Positions 32-22,169 of a stretch of 47,560 nt of DNA are shown here, piece after piece. The stretch is from the IMG/VR virus record IMGVR_UViG_2630968533_000001; one strand, given 5' to 3'. The notes under the pieces are model-generated. The model saw only the letters and a list, made by a program, of their open reading frames with translations, was not told where the DNA came from and ran no database searches. Position 1 is the stretch's first letter; every line of letters begins with the position of its first letter. The DNA comes from a virus (lineage: Duplodnaviria > Heunggongvirae > Uroviricota > Caudoviricetes). Both the position numbers and the translations under genes were made by a program.

Positions 32-40
32 GTGCTCATA

Positions 41-153
41 GAATTATATAATTATATATTTATATAAAAAGTGCTTTACAGGTGGGAAAAAATTTCCTAT
101 GGTTATGCCCGAAACCGAGCGATACCCGCCCTGGTTAAACCGGAGATAACCCG
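41..153 (+). promoter_or_regulatory. Conserved promoter-leader cassette, copy 1 (AT-rich palindrome, -35 TTTACA 75-80, 17-bp spacer, -10 TATGGT 98-103, conserved leader, GGAG SD)
   Basis: Near-identical to 9344-9461 and 16303-16415; sigma70-like hexamers with 17-bp spacing read directly; ends at ATG 154. Confidence 0.55.
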
Positions 154-2246: not shown

Positions 2247-3416
2247 TTATGGTCTGCTCTTCTGTGCCAGCTTATCAGCACATGTTTTTATCAGATCCTG
2301 TAGTGTCCTGGCTGGCAGGTTTGCATCCAGTACGCTGAGTATGCTGTTGTGATCTGCTTGGTCGACTACTTTGCCTGTCGGTGGTAGTAGCTTGAGCTGA
2401 GGATTCAGGTTTTCGTCAAAGCTGATAAGTGCTCTGGCGTTTCTGAGCAGATCAAGAAGTAAGGCTGATATCACATTTTCCTGAGTCATTGCTGACAGAT
2501 TTAGCGCCGCTTTGGTTTTCCCTGTTGCCTTGTCAAACTCCTTGATTAGTTCCTTCCTGTAGTTCGGTTCCGTTAATAGCCGATTATGCTCTGTTGCCGC
2601 GCGGATAATCGTTTTTTCCTGGTACAGTCGTTTAGCCAGATCACGCTCGTACTGTGTTTTTAACACGCTGCTGATAGCGTTAAAGGCTTCAATGTAGGCC
2701 AGCTTGATATCTTTCACGCCTGGACCGTCGATACTTTCCATGAGCAAGGTAAATCCGTCTTTTGTCATGCGATAGATTGTTATTTCGCGGTCGCTTCCTT
2801 CCAGCGGTCGTTGCTCTTTAAAGAAATGACGTGCCGCAGCTGTGCGAGGAATGCGTAACGCATCGATGGCCATAACGATGGAATTGTTTGTGGTGCTGAA
2901 TGCCTGGGCAACATCGGCTGAGGTTGTGAGTGGCTCGTTGTTGCACACCTTAATGTAAAACATCGGTTTGGCGTTGAGCGTATCGACAACCTCACGAGCA
3001 TTGTTTGGCGAGACGGTTACGGTCGCGGCCGTTTGTGTGTTCTGGCTGAAATAGCAGTCTTCCAGCCGTTCGAACACATCCCAAGCCTGATCGGTTTCAA
3101 GCATTTTGGCGTGACGTGCAGCCCCGCGTTCTGTCCAGAGAATGAGGGAGCGGGCTTTCGGGGAAATTTGTAACCCTCTTAAAGATGGTTGCACATTTTG
3201 TGAGTGACTTAAAGTCACTCGCAAAGTTTTTAACTCATCGCCAGCCACTTTGAAAAAATGCTTTCCTTCAATAAAGCGGTTTGCGTTACGTGAGTAATTT
3301 TTTTTGATGTTATCAACGTCTGTGCCGTATAGCTTTGCCAGTAGTTCAGTAGTGATAACGGGGATCTGGTTATGCAGGATAGGCTGTAGGGTGTTAACGG
3401 TCGGAAGCGTTTTCAT
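2247..3416 (-). CDS. Phage antirepressor (N-terminal ORF6N-like and Rha-like domains)
   Basis: ORF track; N-terminal motif ITTELLAKLYGTDVDNIKKNYSRNANRFIEGKHFFKV typical of ORF6N antirepressors; central PLTTSADVAQAF segment Rha-like; start overlaps the stop of the upstream small ORF (ATGA). Confidence 0.65.
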   Translation of the reverse strand: MKTLPTVNTLQPILHNQIPVITTELLAKLYGTDVDNIKKNYSRNANRFIEGKHFFKVAGDELKTLRVTLSHSQNVQPSLRGLQISPKARSLILWTERGAARHAKMLETDQAWDVFERLEDCYFSQNTQTAATVTVSPNNAREVVDTLNAKPMFYIKVCNNEPLTTSADVAQAFSTTNNSIVMAIDALRIPRTAAARHFFKEQRPLEGSDREITIYRMTKDGFTLLMESIDGPGVKDIKLAYIEAFNAISSVLKTQYERDLAKRLYQEKTIIRAATEHNRLLTEPNYRKELIKEFDKATGKTKAALNLSAMTQENVISALLLDLLRNARALISFDENLNPQLKLLPPTGKVVDQADHNSILSVLDANLPARTLQDLIKTCADKLAQKSRP

Positions 3417-3604: not shown

Positions 3605-3769
3605 TGTGATGATTCCCTTAAAGGTTAAGGATACTCACCACCGTCAGGTTCCAATCATTGGGTGGTGAGACGTGCAGGGTTGGAACTACCGGACACAATG
3701 ACGAACCGGCGAGTCTTACGACTCCCCCGCACGCCCCACCATAATTTGGGTGTAGCAGTGCTTTACGCA

Positions 3770-3869
3770 TAAAAAAACCGCTAACGCGGTATGCGCCATT
3801 GTGTCTACGGGGTTCCAATCCCGACCGTAGATTTTGCTACGGCTCGGAAAGTGTCCACCAATGGCGCAT
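3770..3869 (-). ncRNA. Candidate structured small RNA / leader element (c4-like hypothesis)
   Basis: On the minus strand an 11-bp terminal stem (3791-3801 with 3859-3869) encloses an inner hairpin ctacgg/ccgtag, followed by hairpin accgc-gtta-gcggt and a U7 run (3770-3790); loop sequence has a near-complement at about 3680-3695 in the downstream leader. Confidence 0.25.
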
Positions 3870-4360
3870 TCATGTCAATACGGCGGGATTTTAACAGAGA
3901 CAACCACATAGCGTGGGTTTATTGGTAGGCAGAAACAAAAAAACCGCCCTATTGAGGACGGTTCTTTCGTGCTGATCGGATTCGCGGTCCTTTCAGCATA
4001 ACGTCGTTGTATAAACAACCACGCAAGCACAAGCAGCAAGTTAATTTTACCCAAAAGGTAATAATAGTCCACTATTATGCTTCAAAAAATTGTGGTTCTT
4101 GTTGTGCCTGCAAACTCACAGATTGTGGGTAGGTTACTGATTTTGTGAAAATAAACGAGTTTTTTCGTTTAATTTCTTTCCTATTACTAATCTTAAAATA
4201 ATCGTAAAATACCTGTGGACCTTCCCGCCGATTCGCACCCGGGCACCGACTTTAGGGGAGGATTCTCCGTTGCCGTACATGCAAGCACAAGCAGCCGTGC
4301 TTGCTCTCGCGTTGTTTTCGTCGGTGGGGATGCCGTGAAACGGCCTGTAAGGGCCATACA

Positions 4361-4483
4361 ATGAAAAAATACTGTATGTGTATTTTTATCGTTGTTACTG
4401 GGGCTTTGTTTACGCCACATGGGGAGGGTTGGAAGATTACTGATAACGCTCTGAATGTGACGATAAACATTAGCAGCAAGTAG
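4361..4483 (+). CDS. Small hydrophobic ORF (40 aa, MKKYCMCIFIVVTGALF...), speculative
   Basis: In-frame ATG within ORF 4301-4483; hydrophobic N-terminus; followed by a strong terminator; no SD seen. Confidence 0.2.
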   Translation: MKKYCMCIFIVVTGALFTPHGEGWKITDNALNVTINISSK

Positions 4484-4487
4484 CGAT

Positions 4488-4512
4488 TAGGCCCCTTCGG
4501 GGGCCTTTTTTA
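4488..4512 (+). terminator. Rho-independent terminator (AGGCCCC-TTCG-GGGGCCT then T-run)
   Basis: Perfect GC-rich hairpin followed by TTTTTTAT. Confidence 0.55.
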
Positions 4513-4548
4513 TGGTTGAATTTAAACGCTGGAGGCCGTCACCTTCTC

Positions 4549-4797
4549 TTACTTCTGGTTGTATTGAGCCTTGAGTAACTCAAAAGATTTTGTCAGCACT
4601 TCTTTCAATGACATATCCATTGAGCTGGCGAACGTTTTGTACTCGCGTTTAAATTCAGGGTCGACGTTAAACGCCATTTGTGCCCCACCTGATTTGGTTC
4701 TGGTTGGCGTTTCAGTCGGGTCGAAAACCTGCGGTTGTTCGATCGATGGCGGTACGCCTTTGCTGTTCTTCTTTGGTGGTTTTGATGGTCCGGCCAT
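4549..4797 (-). CDS. ParG-like small ribbon-helix-helix partition/centromere-binding protein (82 aa)
   Basis: ORF track; lies directly downstream of parA in the same orientation; basic flexible N-terminus and C-terminal RHH-like segment MAFNVDPEFKREYKTFASSMDMSLKEVL; SD AGAGGGGA upstream. Confidence 0.5.
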   Translation of the reverse strand: MAGPSKPPKKNSKGVPPSIEQPQVFDPTETPTRTKSGGAQMAFNVDPEFKREYKTFASSMDMSLKEVLTKSFELLKAQYNQK

Positions 4798-4840
4798 GTG
4801 TATCCCCTCTTATATAAATCTATAAAACTATAATTATATA

Positions 4841-5509
4841 TTACGCGGCAGTAGTCAGAGCCTCAAGCTGGTTGATAATCCCCTGAATAACGTCGTCTGC
4901 CTTTTTGCGTGGCGCAACGTATGAGCATTCAATGAGGCTTAAGCCCTTATCCTGAGCTTTGCTCAGAGCTGGCTTGTGGGGAATGTACTTATCGACAACA
5001 AAGTATGGCGTATTAGCCAGGTACTCTTGGGCTTCAATGTAGTCGGCTTCGTTTTCAGCCGCGCCTGAGAACACCATGCAAATTTTCTTGATTGGCACAC
5101 CCTTTTTAACGATGCCGTGAGCTGTGTTAACGGTGGTTTCCAGGTCATCGGTAGAGAATCTGGTTGGCAAAATAACCATATCCAGAAATTCAGAGAGCTT
5201 CGGTACTGATTCAGATGCGTAGGCACCGCCATCGACGATAACCAGGTCGTATACTTCTGATTCGATGATTTTCTGGACTTGTGATGGCGTGCCGCACGGC
5301 TGCGCCGCGATTGCAGGTTCGATATTGTTGGCCATTCTGCGTTGTACCCAACGCGTTACCGTTCCGTTAAGCACATCCATATCGATCAGGCATACATTCC
5401 AGCCGGCCTTTGCATAAGCAACTGCTAAAGCACGGGCAATTGTTGATTTGGTTACGCCGCCTTTTCCGTTGAAAATACCTACAGAGATAGTCATTTGTCG
5501 AGACTCCAT
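4841..5509 (-). CDS. parA: ParA/ParF-type partition ATPase
   Basis: ORF track; deviant Walker A GKGGVTKST near the N-terminus; about 220 aa, typical of small type Ib ParA proteins. Confidence 0.85.
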   Translation of the reverse strand: MESRQMTISVGIFNGKGGVTKSTIARALAVAYAKAGWNVCLIDMDVLNGTVTRWVQRRMANNIEPAIAAQPCGTPSQVQKIIESEVYDLVIVDGGAYASESVPKLSEFLDMVILPTRFSTDDLETTVNTAHGIVKKGVPIKKICMVFSGAAENEADYIEAQEYLANTPYFVVDKYIPHKPALSKAQDKGLSLIECSYVAPRKKADDVIQGIINQLEALTTAA

Positions 5510-5511
5510 GT

Positions 5512-5620
5512 ATTTGGTTATATAATTCTATAAATCTATATTTATAGAACGAGGTAAGCATAACCAACTTTTTGGCGGATGAAAAGCGTTTTATATAATT
5601 ATATAAATCTATAATCATGT
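5512..5620. repeat. Iterated AT-rich boxes upstream of parA (putative partition operator/centromere-like site)
   Basis: Two related boxes (5518-5549, 5589-5616) containing TATATAATT(A/C)TATA and AATCTATA; perfect 14-bp palindrome TATATAATTATATA at 5592-5605. Confidence 0.4.
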
Positions 5621-5644
5621 AAGCGGGCGTTAGCCCGCTTTCAG

Positions 5645-6019
5645 TCAGAGGTCAGCTATCGTTGATATCAGTTGATTTGCTAGCTGTCGCTGTTTACGTG
5701 AGAGGGTGAGAGCAGCTTCTGAGCGGTCGCTAAGAGGGGTGTTTTCATCAAGAATCATGAGGCATACAGAAATAATAGCCCTGTTATATGCCATCAATGG
5801 CTGGCACAGCTTCGATATCGCTGGCACATCGTATTGTAAGGCCGTTTTGAGGCAGACTTTTTGTTCTGATGCCAGATGAAGGATAGATTCTATCCAGTCG
5901 ATATCTTTCTCATTATCAATGATTTGGCATAACATACACTCAATCGCTATGTTCAACGCTTGGATTTCGATTCCAGCAGTGATCAGAGTTTCGTTTTTAT
6001 TGGCTGTATGTAATTCCAT
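5645..6019 (-). CDS. Hypothetical protein (124 aa) downstream of the repressor
   Basis: ORF track; no domain recognised; operator-like palindrome sits just upstream of its start. Confidence 0.5.
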   Translation of the reverse strand: MELHTANKNETLITAGIEIQALNIAIECMLCQIIDNEKDIDWIESILHLASEQKVCLKTALQYDVPAISKLCQPLMAYNRAIISVCLMILDENTPLSDRSEAALTLSRKQRQLANQLISTIADL

Positions 6020-9292: not shown

Positions 9293-9343
9293 AAGTGTCA
9301 TTTTGAGCTGTTTTGATGGTGTGTAGACATCGGGAACATCGAA

Positions 9344-9461
9344 AATCTATAAATATATAATTATAGATTTATATAAAAAGTGCTTTACAGGTGGGAAAAA
9401 ATTTCCTATGGTTATACCCGAAACCGAGCGATACCCGCCCTGGTTAAACCGGAGAAATCTG
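9344..9461 (+). promoter_or_regulatory. Conserved promoter-leader cassette, copy 2
   Basis: About 95 bp identical to copies 1 and 3 (TTTATATAAAAAGTGCTTTACAGGTGGGAAAAAATTTCCTATGGTTATACCCGAAACCGAGCGATACCCGCCCTGGTTAAACCGGAG); ends at ATG 9462. Confidence 0.55.
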
Positions 9462-10529
9462 ATGAATAAACAAGTAATTATTTCTGACTGGATCAACAAC
9501 CCTAACAGCCTGTTAAGCACTGATACTGGCTACCTATTACGCCATGTTAATGGTCGTATGGTCAAAAGCGATGAGCACGAAACCTTTTTCTTTGTTGAAG
9601 ACGATGGGCGTATCTATGAGGATGGTTACTCTTATGAAGCCCAAACTGGTTGTATCCCTGCGGAGCTGGTGGACGTAACAGAAGATCTGCGCAAAGCATG
9701 GCTTGAACAGCAGCAGCGCGGAGATGATTACGTAAACACCTATCAGGAACGCCAGAACGCGCGTCTTGCCCGATATATTGCTCGTGCAGAAAAAGCCAGA
9801 AAAGAAGGTGCGGTAGCGCATAAGCGAGCGCATGACCTGTTGGATGTGATCCCGTTAGGCCAGCCGATTTTAGTTGACCATTATAGCGCGAAAGGCCATC
9901 GCCGCCGTTTGTCTAAAGCTGATGCGTTATTCAGAAAAGCGTTTGTTGAATGCGAAAGTAAAGCATCACACTACGAGAGCAAAGCCGCAGGTGTTGGTCG
10001 TAATGGAATTTCGTCTGATGATCCTGATGCGCTATTTAAGTTGCTTCGTAAGCTGCAAGGCTGCATGAAGTCACACGTCAAAATGAAGGCCGCAAATAAG
10101 GCCATTCGCAAATACAAAAAAGACCAAATACAGCAGCTTTCTGCATTAATCGATCTCAGGTTTACAGAAAGCGAAGCCAAAGAGTTACTGGCCGGAGATT
10201 TCTGTGGGCACATCGGATTCCCTTCATACGCACTGAGCAACAATAACGCCGAAATCAAACGACTACAGAGCCGTATTAAGGAGCTTGAATCGGTCAAGTC
10301 TGTAACAGGAGCACAGCGCGAAGAATACGACGGCTTTTCTATGGAGATAGATCCAGAGGATAACCGCATCCTGTTTTATTTCCCTGGCAAACCAGAGGCA
10401 AACATTCGTTCGCTGCTTAAATCACGCGCCTTTAAGTGGAGTCCAACCCGTAATGCATGGGTTCGCAAGATTACTCCAAACGCCCTGGCTGATGCCCGAT
10501 ATCTAAAAGAATCGCTATTGAAAGCCTGA
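9462..10529 (+). CDS. Hypothetical protein (356 aa) expressed from cassette copy 2
   Basis: ORF track ORF 9408-10529, but the ORF-track start lies inside the conserved leader; ATG 9462 sits at the same position relative to the leader as in copies 1 and 3. Confidence 0.55.
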   Translation: MNKQVIISDWINNPNSLLSTDTGYLLRHVNGRMVKSDEHETFFFVEDDGRIYEDGYSYEAQTGCIPAELVDVTEDLRKAWLEQQQRGDDYVNTYQERQNARLARYIARAEKARKEGAVAHKRAHDLLDVIPLGQPILVDHYSAKGHRRRLSKADALFRKAFVECESKASHYESKAAGVGRNGISSDDPDALFKLLRKLQGCMKSHVKMKAANKAIRKYKKDQIQQLSALIDLRFTESEAKELLAGDFCGHIGFPSYALSNNNAEIKRLQSRIKELESVKSVTGAQREEYDGFSMEIDPEDNRILFYFPGKPEANIRSLLKSRAFKWSPTRNAWVRKITPNALADARYLKESLLKA

Positions 10530-10538
10530 CAGTAAGCC

Positions 10539-10568
10539 TACGGCGGGACGTCTCCCGCCGTATATAGA
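10539..10568 (+). terminator. Intrinsic terminator-like hairpin (CGGCGGGA-CGTC-TCCCGCCG) with T/A-rich tail
   Basis: Perfect 8-bp GC-rich stem directly after the stop at 10529. Confidence 0.45.
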
Positions 10569-10606
10569 ATTATATATTTATACAAATGTATAAGGACGCC
10601 TCGACA

Positions 10607-10888
10607 ATGAAACGCAAAATTATTAACCCCCAAGATGTGATTAATTTCCTGACCGATCACCCATGTTCAAAAGTGGACGTAATCGCGGAGCACATTGGTG
10701 TGTCGCAGAACTCTATGCGTTGCAGACTGAGAAGCATGGTTGCCGAAGGACAGATAACAACCAGGAAAATAAATGGTTGCCTGTACTACTCCGCTAAACC
10801 GGAATTGCCATTTGGCATGAATCCTAACTCCATGTTGTTTAACACCTTATTAGCCAAAGTTAAGCCGTTGAGAGGGGCTGTGGCATGA
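10607..10888 (+). CDS. Putative winged-HTH DNA-binding protein (93 aa)
   Basis: ORF track ORF 10586-10888; in-frame ATG 10607 with SD AAGGA; motif DVIAEHIGVSQNSMRCRLRSMVAEGQI resembles a wHTH. Confidence 0.45.
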   Translation: MKRKIINPQDVINFLTDHPCSKVDVIAEHIGVSQNSMRCRLRSMVAEGQITTRKINGCLYYSAKPELPFGMNPNSMLFNTLLAKVKPLRGAVA

Positions 10889-15038: not shown

Positions 15039-15162
15039 TACCGCCTGTGATTGGGTAAAGCCCATCTACCTGACTGATCACGACATCGATGTTATGGACC
15101 GCCAGACAAAGAAAGATATTCTGGCTCATAACAGGGCATGGGAAATCAACTGTCCAAAGTAA
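14953..15162 (+). CDS. o-spanin (Rz1-like lipoprotein) overlapping Rz in another frame
   Basis: ORF track; signal peptide with lipobox-like LIASC; starts within the Rz coding region. Confidence 0.55.
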   Translation: MYSRVLTIWLMTMLIASCGSRGSVPVVVDTACDWVKPIYLTDHDIDVMDRQTKKDILAHNRAWEINCPK

Positions 15163-15331
15163 TATATATTTCTATAATTATATAAATATATAGTTACAAC
15201 ATTCTATGCGCTTTTCTCATGGGCGCACGCATCAACCATGTTTGTCTGATATGCCGCCGCGCCCAAAAATCCTGAATTTATTGGCTGGGATTTTCGTGCG
15301 CGGCGCCACACCAGACAAACAAATCAAATAT

Positions 15332-15407
15332 GGCCCCTTAGCTCAGTGGTTAGAGCAGGCGACTCATAATCGCACGGTCATCGGTTCAAATCCGGTAGGG
15401 GCCACCA
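15332..15407 (+). tRNA. tRNA with CAT anticodon (tRNA-Met or lysidine-type tRNA-Ile2-like)
   Basis: Cloverleaf read by hand: acceptor GGCCCCT/AGGGGCC, D-arm GCTC/GAGC, anticodon loop CTCATAA (CAT at 15365-15367), T-arm ATCGG-TTCAAAT-CCGGT, encoded CCA; G1-C72 paired so not an initiator; 5' half resembles E. coli ileX as recalled. Confidence 0.85.
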
Positions 15408-15714
15408 ATTCACTCTCACACATAAAGATAAGCGCGGTGGAGTTACTTCTTCGTGCTCATCTTTATGCGTGCCTGGTGCGCATTTCGGGCGAACGTGGGG
15501 CTAAGTTACAGGCAGGGCCTGTTATCCGCAAAGGGGTAAAAGCTGGAGCGGCACGGAACTGTAGCCGTGTTACCAAAACAGCGTTGTCGGGCGATATCCG
15601 GCACACAACAGGCAAGGGCATTAATCAGTCTGGTTAGCGCCCTTTTCGTTGTGTTTGCTGTAGAGCTGGCCAGCGTTATGACTGCCGGAGATAAGCGCCG
15701 GAGGCACAATTAAC

Positions 15715-16302
15715 ATGGAGGAAATTGCATTGTTTAATCTGATTTATGCAGATCCCCCCTGGGAATACAAAGACAAGTGTAAGGATGGGAATCGTGGAGC
15801 TGGTTTTAAGTATCCAACGATGAAAGCTGAGGAGATTGCTCGTATTCCTGTCTGGCAGCTTGCTAATCCTGAATCGTGTTTGTTGGCCATGTGGTGGGTT
15901 CCGACTCAGCCAGAAGAAGCGTTGCTGGTGGTGAAAGCATGGGGATTCAGGCTTATGACCATGAAGGGCTTCACATGGAACAAATGTGGTAGCCGACAAC
16001 CAGATAAGCTGGTGATGGGGATGGGGCATATGACTCGTGCAAACAGTGAAGATTGCTTGTTTGCGGTAAAAGGCAAATTGCCGACCCGCCTTGATGCGGG
16101 GATCATTCAGTCGTTTACATCGCTTCGTCTGGAGCATTCTCGGAAGCCTGATGTGGTTCGTGACAAGCTGGTAAGGCTGTTAGGTGATGTTCCTCGTATT
16201 GAGCTGTTTGCTCGCGGTGATTTACCTGATGGTTGGCATGGCTGGGGCAACCAGTGCAATGGAGGTATCCAGTTGCATGATGCTCTCTGGCAAGTGGCAT
16301 AG
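15715..16302 (+). CDS. MT-A70 family adenine DNA methyltransferase
   Basis: ORF track; catalytic DPPW motif in LIYADPPWEYK near the N-terminus. Confidence 0.8.
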   Translation: MEEIALFNLIYADPPWEYKDKCKDGNRGAGFKYPTMKAEEIARIPVWQLANPESCLLAMWWVPTQPEEALLVVKAWGFRLMTMKGFTWNKCGSRQPDKLVMGMGHMTRANSEDCLFAVKGKLPTRLDAGIIQSFTSLRLEHSRKPDVVRDKLVRLLGDVPRIELFARGDLPDGWHGWGNQCNGGIQLHDALWQVA

Positions 16303-16415
16303 AATTATATAATTATATATTTATATAAAAAAGTGCTTTACAGGTGGGAAAAAATTTCCTATGGTTATACCCGAAACCGAGCGATACCCGCCCTGGTTAA
16401 ACCGGAGATAACCCG
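16303..16415 (+). promoter_or_regulatory. Conserved promoter-leader cassette, copy 3
   Basis: Near-identical to copy 1; perfect palindrome TATATAATTATATA at 16306-16319; -35 TTTACA 16337-16342, -10 TATGGT 16360-16365. Confidence 0.55.
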
Positions 16416-16685
16416 ATGAAAGTACAAGACCGTGAAGTAGTAAAAAACCTCCTGCAATACCTGACCTCAAAAAACCTGACGAGCAGCGTTGAGTTCCGTG
16501 AAGCGTTAAAACATTTCAACGTCACTACGGTTTATCGTTGGGAAAACAAACATTCTGAAAGACCGTATGTGGTGGATGTTTTTGCGCCTGATATTGAGTG
16601 CGGTTTTGAGCGCCATTCATTCAAAAAGAAACATTCCGCTGATGTTTTTTGTGAGGTTGTATGTGCGGCAGGAGATGATGAGTGA
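16416..16685 (+). CDS. Hypothetical protein (89 aa) expressed from cassette copy 3
   Basis: ORF track; ATG directly after the conserved leader. Confidence 0.55.
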   Translation: MKVQDREVVKNLLQYLTSKNLTSSVEFREALKHFNVTTVYRWENKHSERPYVVDVFAPDIECGFERHSFKKKHSADVFCEVVCAAGDDE

Positions 16686-18289: not shown

Positions 18290-18913
18290 ATGACAAAACA
18301 ACTTAATGTGGTTTCTTTACCACTTTCTGTGTTGATTGGTTATGAAAAGAACGCTCGCACACACTCCGTGGAGCAGGTAGATCAGATTGTTGCCAGCATA
18401 CAGGAGTACGGATGGACTAATCCGATCCTGATAGACGAGAACAACGTTGTAATTGCTGGTCATGGTCGAATTGCTGCGGCCACTCAGTTGGGGATGGATG
18501 ATGTTCCCTGCATTGTTCTGGCTGGGCTAACGGAGAATCAGAAGAAGGCATATCGTCTGGCCGACAACCGTATTCCGCTGAATGCTGGTTGGGATGAAGA
18601 GCTGTTAAGCGCGGAGCTTGCAGATCTTGCGGCCGATGATTTTGCTCTGGACTCAATTGGTTTTACTCAGCGCGAACTGGATAACTTATTGAGTGCGGCG
18701 GTCTACGATGACACAGAGGGTATGGATATCCCATTTGAGAAGGATGAGGCCAAATCAGGCGTAAAAGTTCAGTACCTGTCATTTGGAGGTCATAAAATCC
18801 CGGCAACGGATGAGGAAGCGGATCGTTTTGACTGCGCGGTGTCTCGTTATGTTGATGATAATGGCAGCTATATCGGATTTGTATCCGCATTGCTGGCTGG
18901 GGAGGTGTGCTAA
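18290..18913 (+). CDS. ParB/Srx-like N-terminal domain protein
   Basis: ORF track; ParB-like nuclease-domain pattern with AGHGRIAAA; paralogue of the gene at 21579. Confidence 0.7.
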   Translation: MTKQLNVVSLPLSVLIGYEKNARTHSVEQVDQIVASIQEYGWTNPILIDENNVVIAGHGRIAAATQLGMDDVPCIVLAGLTENQKKAYRLADNRIPLNAGWDEELLSAELADLAADDFALDSIGFTQRELDNLLSAAVYDDTEGMDIPFEKDEAKSGVKVQYLSFGGHKIPATDEEADRFDCAVSRYVDDNGSYIGFVSALLAGEVC

Positions 18914-20286
18914 TGCTTCACCTCAATTACGACATAACGCACCTACGCGGCGCGGAATATAACCCGCGTTTTATCGGTGAAGATGATCTTGCGAGGCTGG
19001 CGGAAAGCGTCAGGGAGCTGGGGCTTGTGAAGCCATTGATAGTGCGCGGCGATTTGCTGGTGGCGGGACACCAAAGGACGAAGGCGCTACGTAAGTTGGG
19101 AATAACGCGTGCTGCGGTGTATGTGTTGCCCTGTGAAACGACGGTATACGACGAAGTACGGTTTAACCAACTGCATAACGGAACGGATTTTGATAGCGGA
19201 GATGAGCGTTGCAGGGTGTCCGGTCTGGAAGATAAGCATGGTTTTGTTCAGGTATCGGCAAGCCAGATCTCAGGCAATATGCGCGCGAAAATGGCATATG
19301 TTCGAAAGAACATAGCGGAACTGGTTATCAAGTATGGTCCGTGGGGTGGTTGTGTTGCGACTCAGTCTGGCGAGGTTATTCACTGTGCTCAGTATGCATT
19401 AGCAGCGAAGATGACGCGTACACCGCTAACGGTGTTTGTGATCCCTGATGTTGAGAAGGAAAAATACCAAAGTTATCTGAATAAAACTTATGGTGTATTT
19501 GAGTATTCTCATCTGGAGAAAACAACATACATCCAGACGTATGCGCAGCTTATGCGGTTGCGTAATGGTGGCAGCCTGAAATCAAACCTGTATGAGTCGT
19601 TGATCCTCCCGATCATTGCCAAGACGCCAAGAGGAATTGATTTTGGTTCGGGGCAGGGAGACTACGCGCGAATGCTCAGGGCAAAGGGATATAACCTGCA
19701 TGATCTCGAGCTTTTCCGCCGTAAGGGCGCTGGAAACACTCTGGATAGGACCGCAACAAACCGGATGATTGATACGCTGGTGGACGACTTAAAAACGCGA
19801 GGGCGTTACGACTACGTGATTTGCGATAGCGTTTTGAACTCGGTCGATAGTGTCGAGGCTGAATGGTCCGTTCTGACGGTTCTGAAAGGCTTGTGTAAAG
19901 CTGGTGGGTCAATATTCTTTTCTGGCCGTAGCCGTGGAGAGCTGGAAACAGTCCTGAAGCAAACACAAGCTGCGAGTTCCAAAAGCCGGCTTTATTTTAT
20001 TGATCATAACGGTTTTACCGCGTTGTACCGGAAGGGGCACTGGTTTTACCAGAAGTTTCACTCTGATGAGGAAGTGAAGCAGTTGTGTCGTGTACATGGT
20101 TTCAGGATTAAGCGGTCAATATTCAACTGTAAGAGCTGGTATTTGCACGTCATTAACGATGATTCCCTTAGTTGGGCGAGTCTGGAGAAAGCTGTTCGTT
20201 TTGAGTTTGAGTTGCCGTTGCCTGGTGGTTCAACAATCGGACGATCTGATGATGTGCTGGCGGCTTTCCGGCCGTTGATTAAGTAG
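18907..20286 (+). CDS. ParB-like N-terminal domain fused to a class I SAM-dependent methyltransferase-like domain (459 aa)
   Basis: ORF track; N-terminal LIVRGDLLVAGHQRTKALRKLG ParB-like; C-terminal GIDFGSGQGDYARML (motif I-like) and RYDYVICDSVLN; no DPPY/NPPY DNA-methylase motif seen. Confidence 0.6.
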   Translation: MLMLHLNYDITHLRGAEYNPRFIGEDDLARLAESVRELGLVKPLIVRGDLLVAGHQRTKALRKLGITRAAVYVLPCETTVYDEVRFNQLHNGTDFDSGDERCRVSGLEDKHGFVQVSASQISGNMRAKMAYVRKNIAELVIKYGPWGGCVATQSGEVIHCAQYALAAKMTRTPLTVFVIPDVEKEKYQSYLNKTYGVFEYSHLEKTTYIQTYAQLMRLRNGGSLKSNLYESLILPIIAKTPRGIDFGSGQGDYARMLRAKGYNLHDLELFRRKGAGNTLDRTATNRMIDTLVDDLKTRGRYDYVICDSVLNSVDSVEAEWSVLTVLKGLCKAGGSIFFSGRSRGELETVLKQTQAASSKSRLYFIDHNGFTALYRKGHWFYQKFHSDEEVKQLCRVHGFRIKRSIFNCKSWYLHVINDDSLSWASLEKAVRFEFELPLPGGSTIGRSDDVLAAFRPLIK

Positions 20287-21578: not shown

Positions 21579-22169
21579 ATGGCTCTAAAAATCGAATATT
21601 TACCAGTCGGTAAGTTGCTCAGATATGCCAAAAATTCACGGACTCATTCAGATGAGCAAGTTGAACAGTTGGTGAACAGTATCCGTGAGTTCGGTTTCAC
21701 TAATCCTGTGCTGATCGATGAAAAGAATGAACTGATTGCGGGGCATGGGCGGCTTGCAGCAGCCGAAATTCTGGAAATGGATAAAGTTCCGGCGATTCGG
21801 TTGAGTAACCTTTCTGAAAAACAGAAGAAGGCTTACAGGATTGCAGATAACAAGCTGGCCTTAAATGCTGGCTGGGATATGCAGCTTCTGGCCGAAGAAG
21901 TCAAAGAGTTAATGGATGATGATTTTGATATTGATCTGCTTGGGTTTAATGATGCAGAGCTTGACGAAATGTTAAGCGATGAACAGCCGCAGGAAGAAGA
22001 CGATAATTCTTCCCCTGTTGTTCAAATTAAGTACCTGGCTATTGATAAAGAACGTATTCCCGCGACGGATATGGAAATTGCATTGTTGCTGGATGTTTAT
22101 CGTCAGTACCACGACGCGCATGAAACGCATGAGGGATTTGTTCAGTATCTTGCTAATGGTTGCAAGTAA
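21579..22169 (+). CDS. ParB/Srx-like N-terminal domain protein
   Basis: ORF track; paralogous to 18290-18913 (shared LIAGHGRLAAA and QKKAYRIADN motifs). Confidence 0.7.
   Translation: MALKIEYLPVGKLLRYAKNSRTHSDEQVEQLVNSIREFGFTNPVLIDEKNELIAGHGRLAAAEILEMDKVPAIRLSNLSEKQKKAYRIADNKLALNAGWDMQLLAEEVKELMDDDFDIDLLGFNDAELDEMLSDEQPQEEDDNSSPVVQIKYLAIDKERIPATDMEIALLLDVYRQYHDAHETHEGFVQYLANGCK

Follow-up and report, generated by a model that had tools for sequence, protein, structure and literature searches.

What would a plasmid-type partition cassette do in a phage genome, and on which DNA sites would it act? The question is raised by positions 4549-5620 of the Caudoviricetes record IMGVR_UViG_2630968533_000001, whose 47,560 nucleotides were analysed as a whole (hereafter, the window). 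Here, a gene for a Walker-type ParA is followed by a gene for an 82-residue protein. A first-pass annotation, made from the sequence alone, had taken the pair for a partition operon of the ParF/ParG type. According to our analysis, the cassette is likely to be a type Ib (ParF/ParG-like) module for partition and autoregulation, whose ribbon-helix-helix (RHH) protein probably has a dispersed, omega-like set of sites. The kind of system, a type Ib ParA with an RHH partner, is already known. What is new is the RHH partner, so far without annotation, and five repeat arrays outside the cassette.

A short ParA and its small partner

Both genes of the operon are on the minus strand:

4841-5494, minus strand: parA (654 nt), encoding a 217-aa ParF-like ATPase with a deviant Walker A motif; the open reading frame (ORF) extends to 5509, for 222 aa
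4549-4797, minus strand: gene of the 82-aa predicted centromere-binding protein, with a disordered basic tail (residues 1-40), a beta-strand (about 40-46) and two helices (47-59 and 64-80)

The length of 222 residues first proposed for ParA is counted from the first ATG (5509), which has no ribosome-binding site (RBS). The ATG at 5494 sits 9 nt after GGAG (5504-5507) and is the start adopted in RefSeq relatives; ParA is therefore probably 217 residues long. This corrects the length of the protein and leaves its identity as a Walker-type ParA intact. The 222-aa ORF scores 1.7e-12 against Pfam CbiA and 2e-39 against PHROG 164 ('ParA-like partition protein'). The NCBIfam model ParA_partition matches at 4.7e-22 over residues 10-211, but the 78.5 bits obtained are below the equivalog cut-off of 180. 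Residues 10-17 read GKGGVTKS and the signature of the ParA/MinD superfamily is present. K11, K16, D38, D40 and D88 are invariant in an alignment of six members of the ParA family. Among solved structures, the best match of the profile built on these six members is ParF, the ParA of TP228 (4dzz, 5u1g; E 1e-11). The two align end to end (profile positions 4-208 with ParF 3-203), whereas nearly all other matches to solved structures cover the Walker A region only. Because Walker A begins at residue 10, ParA has no N-terminal helix-turn-helix (HTH) or regulatory extension. Its size and architecture are those of the short ParA of type Ib systems (about 200-230 aa, no N-terminal HTH) and not those of the large ParA of type Ia.

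Between parA and the 82-aa ORF lie 43 bp, and the ORF is preceded by an RBS of its own, GAGGGG. The small partner gene is thus immediately downstream in the same operon, as in type Ib loci. When the protein was searched alone, nothing was found in Pfam, NCBIfam or the PDB sequences, and ParG was absent at E up to 0.1. Its sole clear family is PHROG 6024, to which no function is assigned. A word-indexed homologue search reached only relatives that are at least 80% identical. The wider family was obtained by an exhaustive profile search of 1.84 billion representatives. With an E limit of 1e-3 it comprises 102 proteins, nearly all of them 72-90 residues long. Their N-terminal parts share a conserved motif, with P7, K/R9, K/R10, K13-G14 and P16-P17 (P-x-[KR]-[KR]-x-x-K-G-x-P-P). 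After a variable linker comes a conserved C-terminal block, L-N-F-K-V-x-x-E-F-x-R-E-F-K-x-x-A.

This C-terminal block points to an RHH domain. Among 84 members scanned singly against Pfam, 37 match RHH_10, 21 Antitox_RHH, 8 56B_RHH and 5 ParG; the ParG matches are weak (best E 2.7e-4). The family profile finds three matches in the PDB sequences, all of them RHH proteins (56B, ParG 1p94 and an antitoxin). ParG appears there at E 0.16, with ParG residues 27-74 aligned to profile positions 28-75. With hhalign, the comparison with ParG gives a probability of 64% over the RHH domain (residues 34-77 with ParG 30-73). An AlphaFold2 model computed from an 84-sequence alignment has pLDDT values above 90 at residues 41-80, where an extended segment is followed by helices 47-59 and 64-80. 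The tail is predicted with lower confidence and without secondary structure. A Foldseek search of the PDB with this model returned RHH proteins almost throughout the 50 matches listed, including the DNA-binding domain of PutA, CdbA, AmrZ, CopG, ParD and Arc (target TM-scores 0.65-0.86). Models and profiles together make a disordered tail followed by a C-terminal RHH domain a well supported prediction.

The RHH-like character first proposed for the small protein is borne out by these results. The layout of the ParF/ParG type also agrees with them, ParA matching ParF over its full length and the RHH protein aligning weakly to ParG at the same position. Of a relationship to the ParG and omega families, the predicted RHH fold and the hhalign match to ParG stand, but not membership of the Pfam families ParG or Omega_Repress. 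Omega_Repress is not among the matches listed, either for the 82-aa protein or for the family members. Judged by its sequence, the protein is analogous or distantly related to ParG and lies outside that family.

The two genes stay together. In all seven informative loci, the homologue of the small protein is encoded directly downstream of a ParA of 207-217 residues. These loci are on Serratia pJSRIV006_2, Yersinia pestis pTP33, Erwinia pETR006-a and the metagenomic contigs L008, L009, L090 and L093/L094. Two further contigs are too short for ParA adjacency to be judged. L009 bears the gene of a type IV secretion system (T4SS) coupling protein, and both L009 and L093 bear ParE-type toxin genes. 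Because no phage genes are in view on these two contigs, the ParA-RHH pair is a general plasmid cassette that is not specific to phages.

Repeat arrays inside and outside the cassette

The 12-mer TATAAATCTATA, with up to 2 mismatches allowed, is found at 47 places in the window; shuffled sequences give 5.3 +/- 2.1. Arrays were defined as 4 x ATAKAWTT with up to 8 mismatches. Eight are found in the window, against 0.13 per shuffled genome; three are in the cassette and five outside. Inside the arrays, base identity is highest at a lag of 8 (0.71). The cassette arrays and the promoter between two of them are:

5589-5620: array C, four 8-bp units, directly upstream of the -35 box of parA
5557-5585, minus strand: putative parA promoter, -35 TTTTCA (5580-5585), 17 nt, -10 TATGCT (5557-5562)
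5516-5547: array B, four 8-bp units, in the 5' UTR between the -10 box and the RBS of parA
4808-4839: array A, four 8-bp units, filling the spacer between parA and the small gene

The parA promoter agrees with the consensus at 8 of 12 positions and falls under the cut-off of the promoter scanner. Its positional equivalents are TTTACA-17-TAATCT in the Serratia element and TTTACA-17-TAAGCT in L008. The assignment is a putative one, made from position and from these equivalents. The orientation of the arrays relative to transcription is left unclaimed because the 8-bp unit is nearly palindromic.

All five dispersed arrays are intergenic:

38-69: dispersed array 1, upstream of a promoter module (TTTACA-17-TATGGT) driving the ORF at 154-534
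9343-9374: dispersed array 2, upstream of a TTTACA-17-TATGGT module driving the DUF3560 gene (9408-10529)
10564-10595: dispersed array 3, abutting the RBS of the ORF that starts at 10607
15160-15191: dispersed array 4, 140 bp upstream of tRNA-Met (15332-15407)
16299-16330: dispersed array 5, upstream of the third copy of the TTTACA-17-TATGGT module (ORF 16416-16685)

The boxes had been put forward as candidate centromere or operator sites of the cassette. They are indeed non-random and placed where type Ib systems have their sites, but they are not confined to the cassette. Because they extend beyond it, the label 'centromere/operator' is too narrow. On sequence grounds, the five dispersed arrays are most simply read as additional sites of the same RHH protein.

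Conservation bears on this reading. In the Salmonella plasmid LN890526, all eight arrays are kept at the corresponding positions. The small protein is 89% identical there and one compared backbone segment has about 72% DNA identity; the parA promoter spacer, flanked by arrays B and C, is scrambled. The Serratia phage-plasmid is more distant, with a small protein about 38-40% identical, siphovirus-type structural genes and a syntenic immunity region. Its par locus has the layout of the window: array, promoter, array, then the RBS of parA. It also has three promoter-leader modules of its own, with an array before each, and one array abutting an RBS. The unit is different. It is TTTAAATA-like and occurs in six places, most of which correspond to sites in the window. 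Arrays of the Serratia type stand at three places in the L008 cassette, one of them the spacer. In L093, L009 and L090, ParA and the RHH protein are all that is common with the window. Arrays of 8-bp units flank parA and lie at the parA-parB junction in these loci too, with the units TCGTTAWT, TTCGTTAW and TTAGCGAW, respectively. Placement of an array in the spacer recurs in L008 and L093; in L009 the array is at the 3' end of parA. Over 20 kb of L009, tandem two-unit matches are found at the par locus only, with two isolated single-unit matches elsewhere.

Residues 40, 42 and 44 of the small protein are predicted to face the DNA because residues 41, 43 and 45 are hydrophobic. The window has Q-A-N at these positions (unit ATAKAWTT), Serratia and L008 have P/A-N-N (TTTAAATA-like units), and L009, L093 and L090, whose units have a C/G core, have x-N-K. 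In this small sample, the sequence of the unit appears to vary coherently with the predicted DNA-facing residues. As candidates for binding by the RHH protein, the iterated repeats expected of a type Ib locus are present, non-random and conserved, and their units diverge with the protein. Across the systems compared, the ParA/RHH pair is the only common candidate for a trans-acting factor.

A different arrangement is seen in the branch of pTP33 and Erwinia, where the beta-strand reads D-L-N-F-K-V-S. AT-rich 8-bp arrays are absent upstream of parA in this branch. Instead, this region (L004 2190-2260 in pTP33) has TCAC-containing repeats (ATCAC, TTCAC and others) that recall the heptads of omega type.

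Other assignments of the arrays were considered and discarded. Iterons of RepA were rejected, RepA being of the IncFII type and such repeats being absent near repA. CI operators were rejected as well, the cI-cro intergenic region being without arrays. The third rejected assignment was to the weakly winged-helix-like product of the ORF at 10607, which is absent from the Serratia element.

The array, promoter and leader form a module present in three near-identical copies in the window (38-153, 9343-9407 and 16299-16415). The leader is about 50 nt long and ends in CCGGAGATAAC-N-ATG. In the Serratia relative, the module likewise exists in three copies, of a version of its own (L006 16903-17030, 19238-19370 and 26195-26325). 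A hairpin in the leader shows compensatory changes (AACC...GGTT versus GGCC...GGCC), which suggests a conserved RNA structure beside the Shine-Dalgarno sequence. Near dispersed array 4, the gene of tRNA-Met (CAT; 15332-15407, plus strand) overlaps a 143-aa ORF (15206-15637) that is probably spurious.

The phage-plasmid and the surroundings of the cassette

The window (47.6 kb) is an essentially complete circular phage-plasmid. It encodes RepA and a HigB/RelE toxin-antitoxin pair, and it replicates by way of this IncFII-type RepA. The cassette region is 98-99.8% identical in about 57 'non-mobilizable' E. coli plasmids of 47-50 kb and in three Yersinia phages isolated on Y. pestis EV76 (vB_YpM_39, 41 and 44). 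Close relatives include infectious Yersinia phages, and also Salmonella and Klebsiella plasmids. The annotation of a RefSeq relative, pMB9698_3, lists myovirus head and tail genes, lysis genes, an IncFII-type RepA and a RelE/HigB toxin-antitoxin pair. The 48.5-kb plasmid of E. coli ATCC 25922 (NZ_CP009073.1) belongs to the group, and in a 47,558-bp plasmid the cassette is 100% identical.

The element is common. Of 5,426 complete E. coli genomes, 70 carry the cassette, at 71 places: 70 on plasmids (about 47-57 kb) and one on a chromosome. Episomal maintenance of the phage, which had been proposed from the presence of the cassette, is thereby corroborated. The partition protein of the element bears just the label 'hypothetical'; it should be annotated as a ParG-like (RHH) partition protein. 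A literature search found no paper on this element or its accessions. Membership of the pSLy3/SSU5 group of phage-plasmids had been a guess and was dropped, since papers put that group in a different supergroup.

A natural deletion derivative of the phage-plasmid is on record as pCREC-544_3 (NZ_CP024829.1, L095; 32,182 bp). The parA-RHH cassette is missing from it, along with the repressor and the early and lysis genes; what is left includes the structural genes, RepA, the toxin-antitoxin pair and a single array-promoter module.

As first described, the cassette lies between the antirepressor and repressor genes, with the region of ant and the C4 RNA on one side and the CI-like repressor on the other. 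The features around it, together with two genes of the late region, are:

2247-3416: ORF6N/Rha antirepressor gene
4215-4511, plus strand: ryfA RNA, full-length (Rfam), convergent with the RHH gene
4489-4506: GC-rich hairpin between the small gene and the convergent ryfA, a terminator-like site found on the plus strand
5618-5643, minus strand: hairpin (inverted repeat) after the upstream orf124 gene, separating the cassette from the repressor operon
18290-20286 and 21579-22169, plus strand: proteins with a ParB/Srx N-terminal domain, in the late region beside terminase

Rfam also places a P1-type C4 antisense RNA and isrK (3658-3746 and 3771-3843, both on the minus strand) upstream of the ORF6N/Rha antirepressor gene. 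By sequence resemblance, this amounts to a partition cassette adjoining an immunity region like immI of P1. The hairpin at 5618-5643 may act as a terminator. Between the cassette and the CI-like repressor is a 124-aa ORF predicted to be acidic and helical (5645-6019, minus strand; PHROG 7632, a family without assigned function). The Serratia protein encoded at the equivalent position is not detectably similar.

Just after the RHH gene, 185 bp are missing from the window (junction 4527-4549) that are present in every other relative examined (L002 20135-20320). The deletion is bounded by two CGCTGGAG direct repeats and takes out a conserved 49-aa ORF (MSEQQYTRLLKTRL...). The Serratia plasmid and L008 have this ORF too (50-56% identity), likewise after the RHH gene. 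It is a candidate for a third gene of the operon.

Proposed mechanism, alternatives and known systems

How might such a module work? DNA binding, repression, ATPase stimulation and stabilisation by the cassette are all predicted here from sequence. The 82-aa protein would dimerise by its C-terminal RHH domain. With one RHH dimer per 8-bp unit, an array of four units would be coated cooperatively. The arrays bracketing the parA promoter and the one in the spacer would have a double use, as operator sites through which the operon represses itself and as centromere. With its conserved basic N-terminal tail, the protein would touch ParA-ATP on the nucleoid and stimulate ATP hydrolysis, and plasmid copies would thereby be positioned apart before division. 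The five dispersed arrays would then take part in a multi-site partition complex, in the co-regulation of plasmid-state promoters, or in both.

We tentatively extend this proposal. It is possible, with the balance slightly on the negative side, that the RHH protein doubles as a genome-wide regulator. The eight arrays would couple assembly of the partition complex to insulated 'plasmid-state' promoters, and the set of sites would have co-evolved with the DNA-reading beta-strand. The proposed regulon comprises the three promoter-leader modules, tRNA-Met, the DUF3560 gene and the operon itself. Co-evolution of sites and protein is suggested because the unit changed in the Serratia lineage.

Some observations weigh against a partition module acting through these arrays. 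The 82-aa protein does not belong to the Pfam family ParG (PF09274). The cassette may be non-essential because the 32-kb derivative that lacks it exists as a plasmid record. Finally, several proteins without assigned function are common to the window and the Serratia element, and could bind the dispersed arrays.

This last point leads to an alternative that we consider improbable but the least so. The arrays would be bound by another factor, either a phage early protein or a nucleoid protein of the host such as H-NS, Fis or IHF, or they would act as UP-like elements, the RHH protein reading some of these sites or others. The arrays are almost pure A/T, and several of them stand at about -38 to -70 of promoters, in UP-element territory. 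A host factor or UP role, however, leaves unexplained why the unit switches between E. coli/Salmonella and Serratia and is uniform in each genome. Arrays inside the operon and the 5' UTR are unexplained as well. Such a role is unlikely because the units are lineage-specific and arrays are found inside the operon. In addition, the 8-bp period is out of phase with helical bending. As to a phage protein, the ORF at 10607-10888, which comes after one of the arrays, has weak winged-helix matches, but no homologue in Serratia. Moreover, the non-phage loci that have just ParA and the RHH protein in common with the window still bear arrays of 8-bp units around parA.

Slightly less probable still is that the pair serves mainly in transcriptional control, with the RHH protein as a global repressor or activator, ParA as co-regulator and partition minor or absent. 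Five of the eight arrays are at other promoters or genes and the cassette sits within the immunity region. The derivative without the cassette persists as a plasmid, and omega is a known global regulator (PMC9499535). On the other hand, the pair and its flanking arrays are found on non-phage plasmid contigs beside toxin-antitoxin genes. In the 20 kb examined, tandem arrays are restricted to the par locus, a hallmark of partition cassettes. ParA is ParF-like over its full length, and the tail motif is conserved, as expected of an ATPase-stimulating peptide.

It is very improbable that ParA is instead partnered by one of the proteins with a ParB/Srx N-terminal domain that are encoded about 13 kb away, the 82-aa ORF being an unrelated small regulator. 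RefSeq does annotate such proteins in close relatives, but their genes adjoin terminase among the late genes, and in the Salmonella relative a methyltransferase domain is fused to one of them or follows it. The RHH gene is next to parA in seven of seven loci. The ParB/Srx proteins are not partners of ParA because the Serratia element, L008, L009, L090 and L093 keep ParA and the RHH protein without them. These proteins probably serve DNA modification or packaging.

A type Ib partition module with an RHH protein thus remains the preferred reading of the cassette. The RHH family has more than 100 clusters, a conserved tail motif and protein-linked 8-bp units, and so offers natural specificity variants for DNA reading by RHH proteins. 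The dispersed arrays provide a testable case of a partition protein co-opted as a regulator in a phage-plasmid, to be compared with omega (Inc18) and SopB (N15).

Comparison with ParF-ParG-parH of TP228 shows the same general organisation. ParA is short in both systems (217 aa here, 206 aa for ParF). As in ParG, the partner has about 80 residues, with an N-terminal tail predicted to be disordered and a C-terminal RHH domain predicted at the same position. The tail of ParG carries an arginine-finger-like residue; the conserved tail motif found here is lysine- and proline-rich instead. The parH site consists of tetramer boxes with AT-rich spacers, which ParG coats cooperatively (PMC3130281). In both cases, the cis site, a putative one here, is upstream of the ATPase gene and is made of short A/T-rich boxes with a pitch of 8 bp (PMC3130281); the autoregulatory layout is predicted here. 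The box is ACTC there and ATAKAWTT here. TP228 has a single parH of about 100 bp plus an operator, whereas the phage-plasmid has discrete blocks of four units, three in the cassette and five elsewhere.

The second comparison is with delta-omega-parS of pSM19035. Delta has about 284 residues and is larger than the ParA of the window. Both systems have an RHH protein (predicted here), contiguous short non-palindromic repeats and multiple arrays overlapping promoters, and partition is combined with global regulation in pSM19035. Six parS arrays overlap the promoters of copS, delta and omega, and at least four contiguous repeats are needed for activation of the ATPase (PMC9499535). This minimum equals the four units per array found here. 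The resemblance, with several promoter arrays of four units each, is best taken as an analogy. Indeed, the pitch is 7 bp for omega (WATCACW) and 8 bp here, and sequence similarity with omega was not detected, Omega_Repress being absent from the matches listed. The hosts are Firmicutes in one case and Enterobacterales in the other. The extra arrays of the window adjoin phage-plasmid accessory genes and a tRNA gene, and not copy-control or toxin-antitoxin genes.

According to Ravin and colleagues, binding of SopB reportedly also affects phage gene expression in the phage-plasmid N15. N15 resembles the present element in having its centromere sites, four in number, scattered and not clustered (PMC7205306). 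Its SopAB system is of type Ia, with a large ParA bearing an N-terminal regulatory domain, an HTH protein of the ParB family and palindromic sites. The phage-plasmid described here would combine the same dispersal of sites with a type Ib ParA, a predicted RHH protein and arrays of direct repeats.

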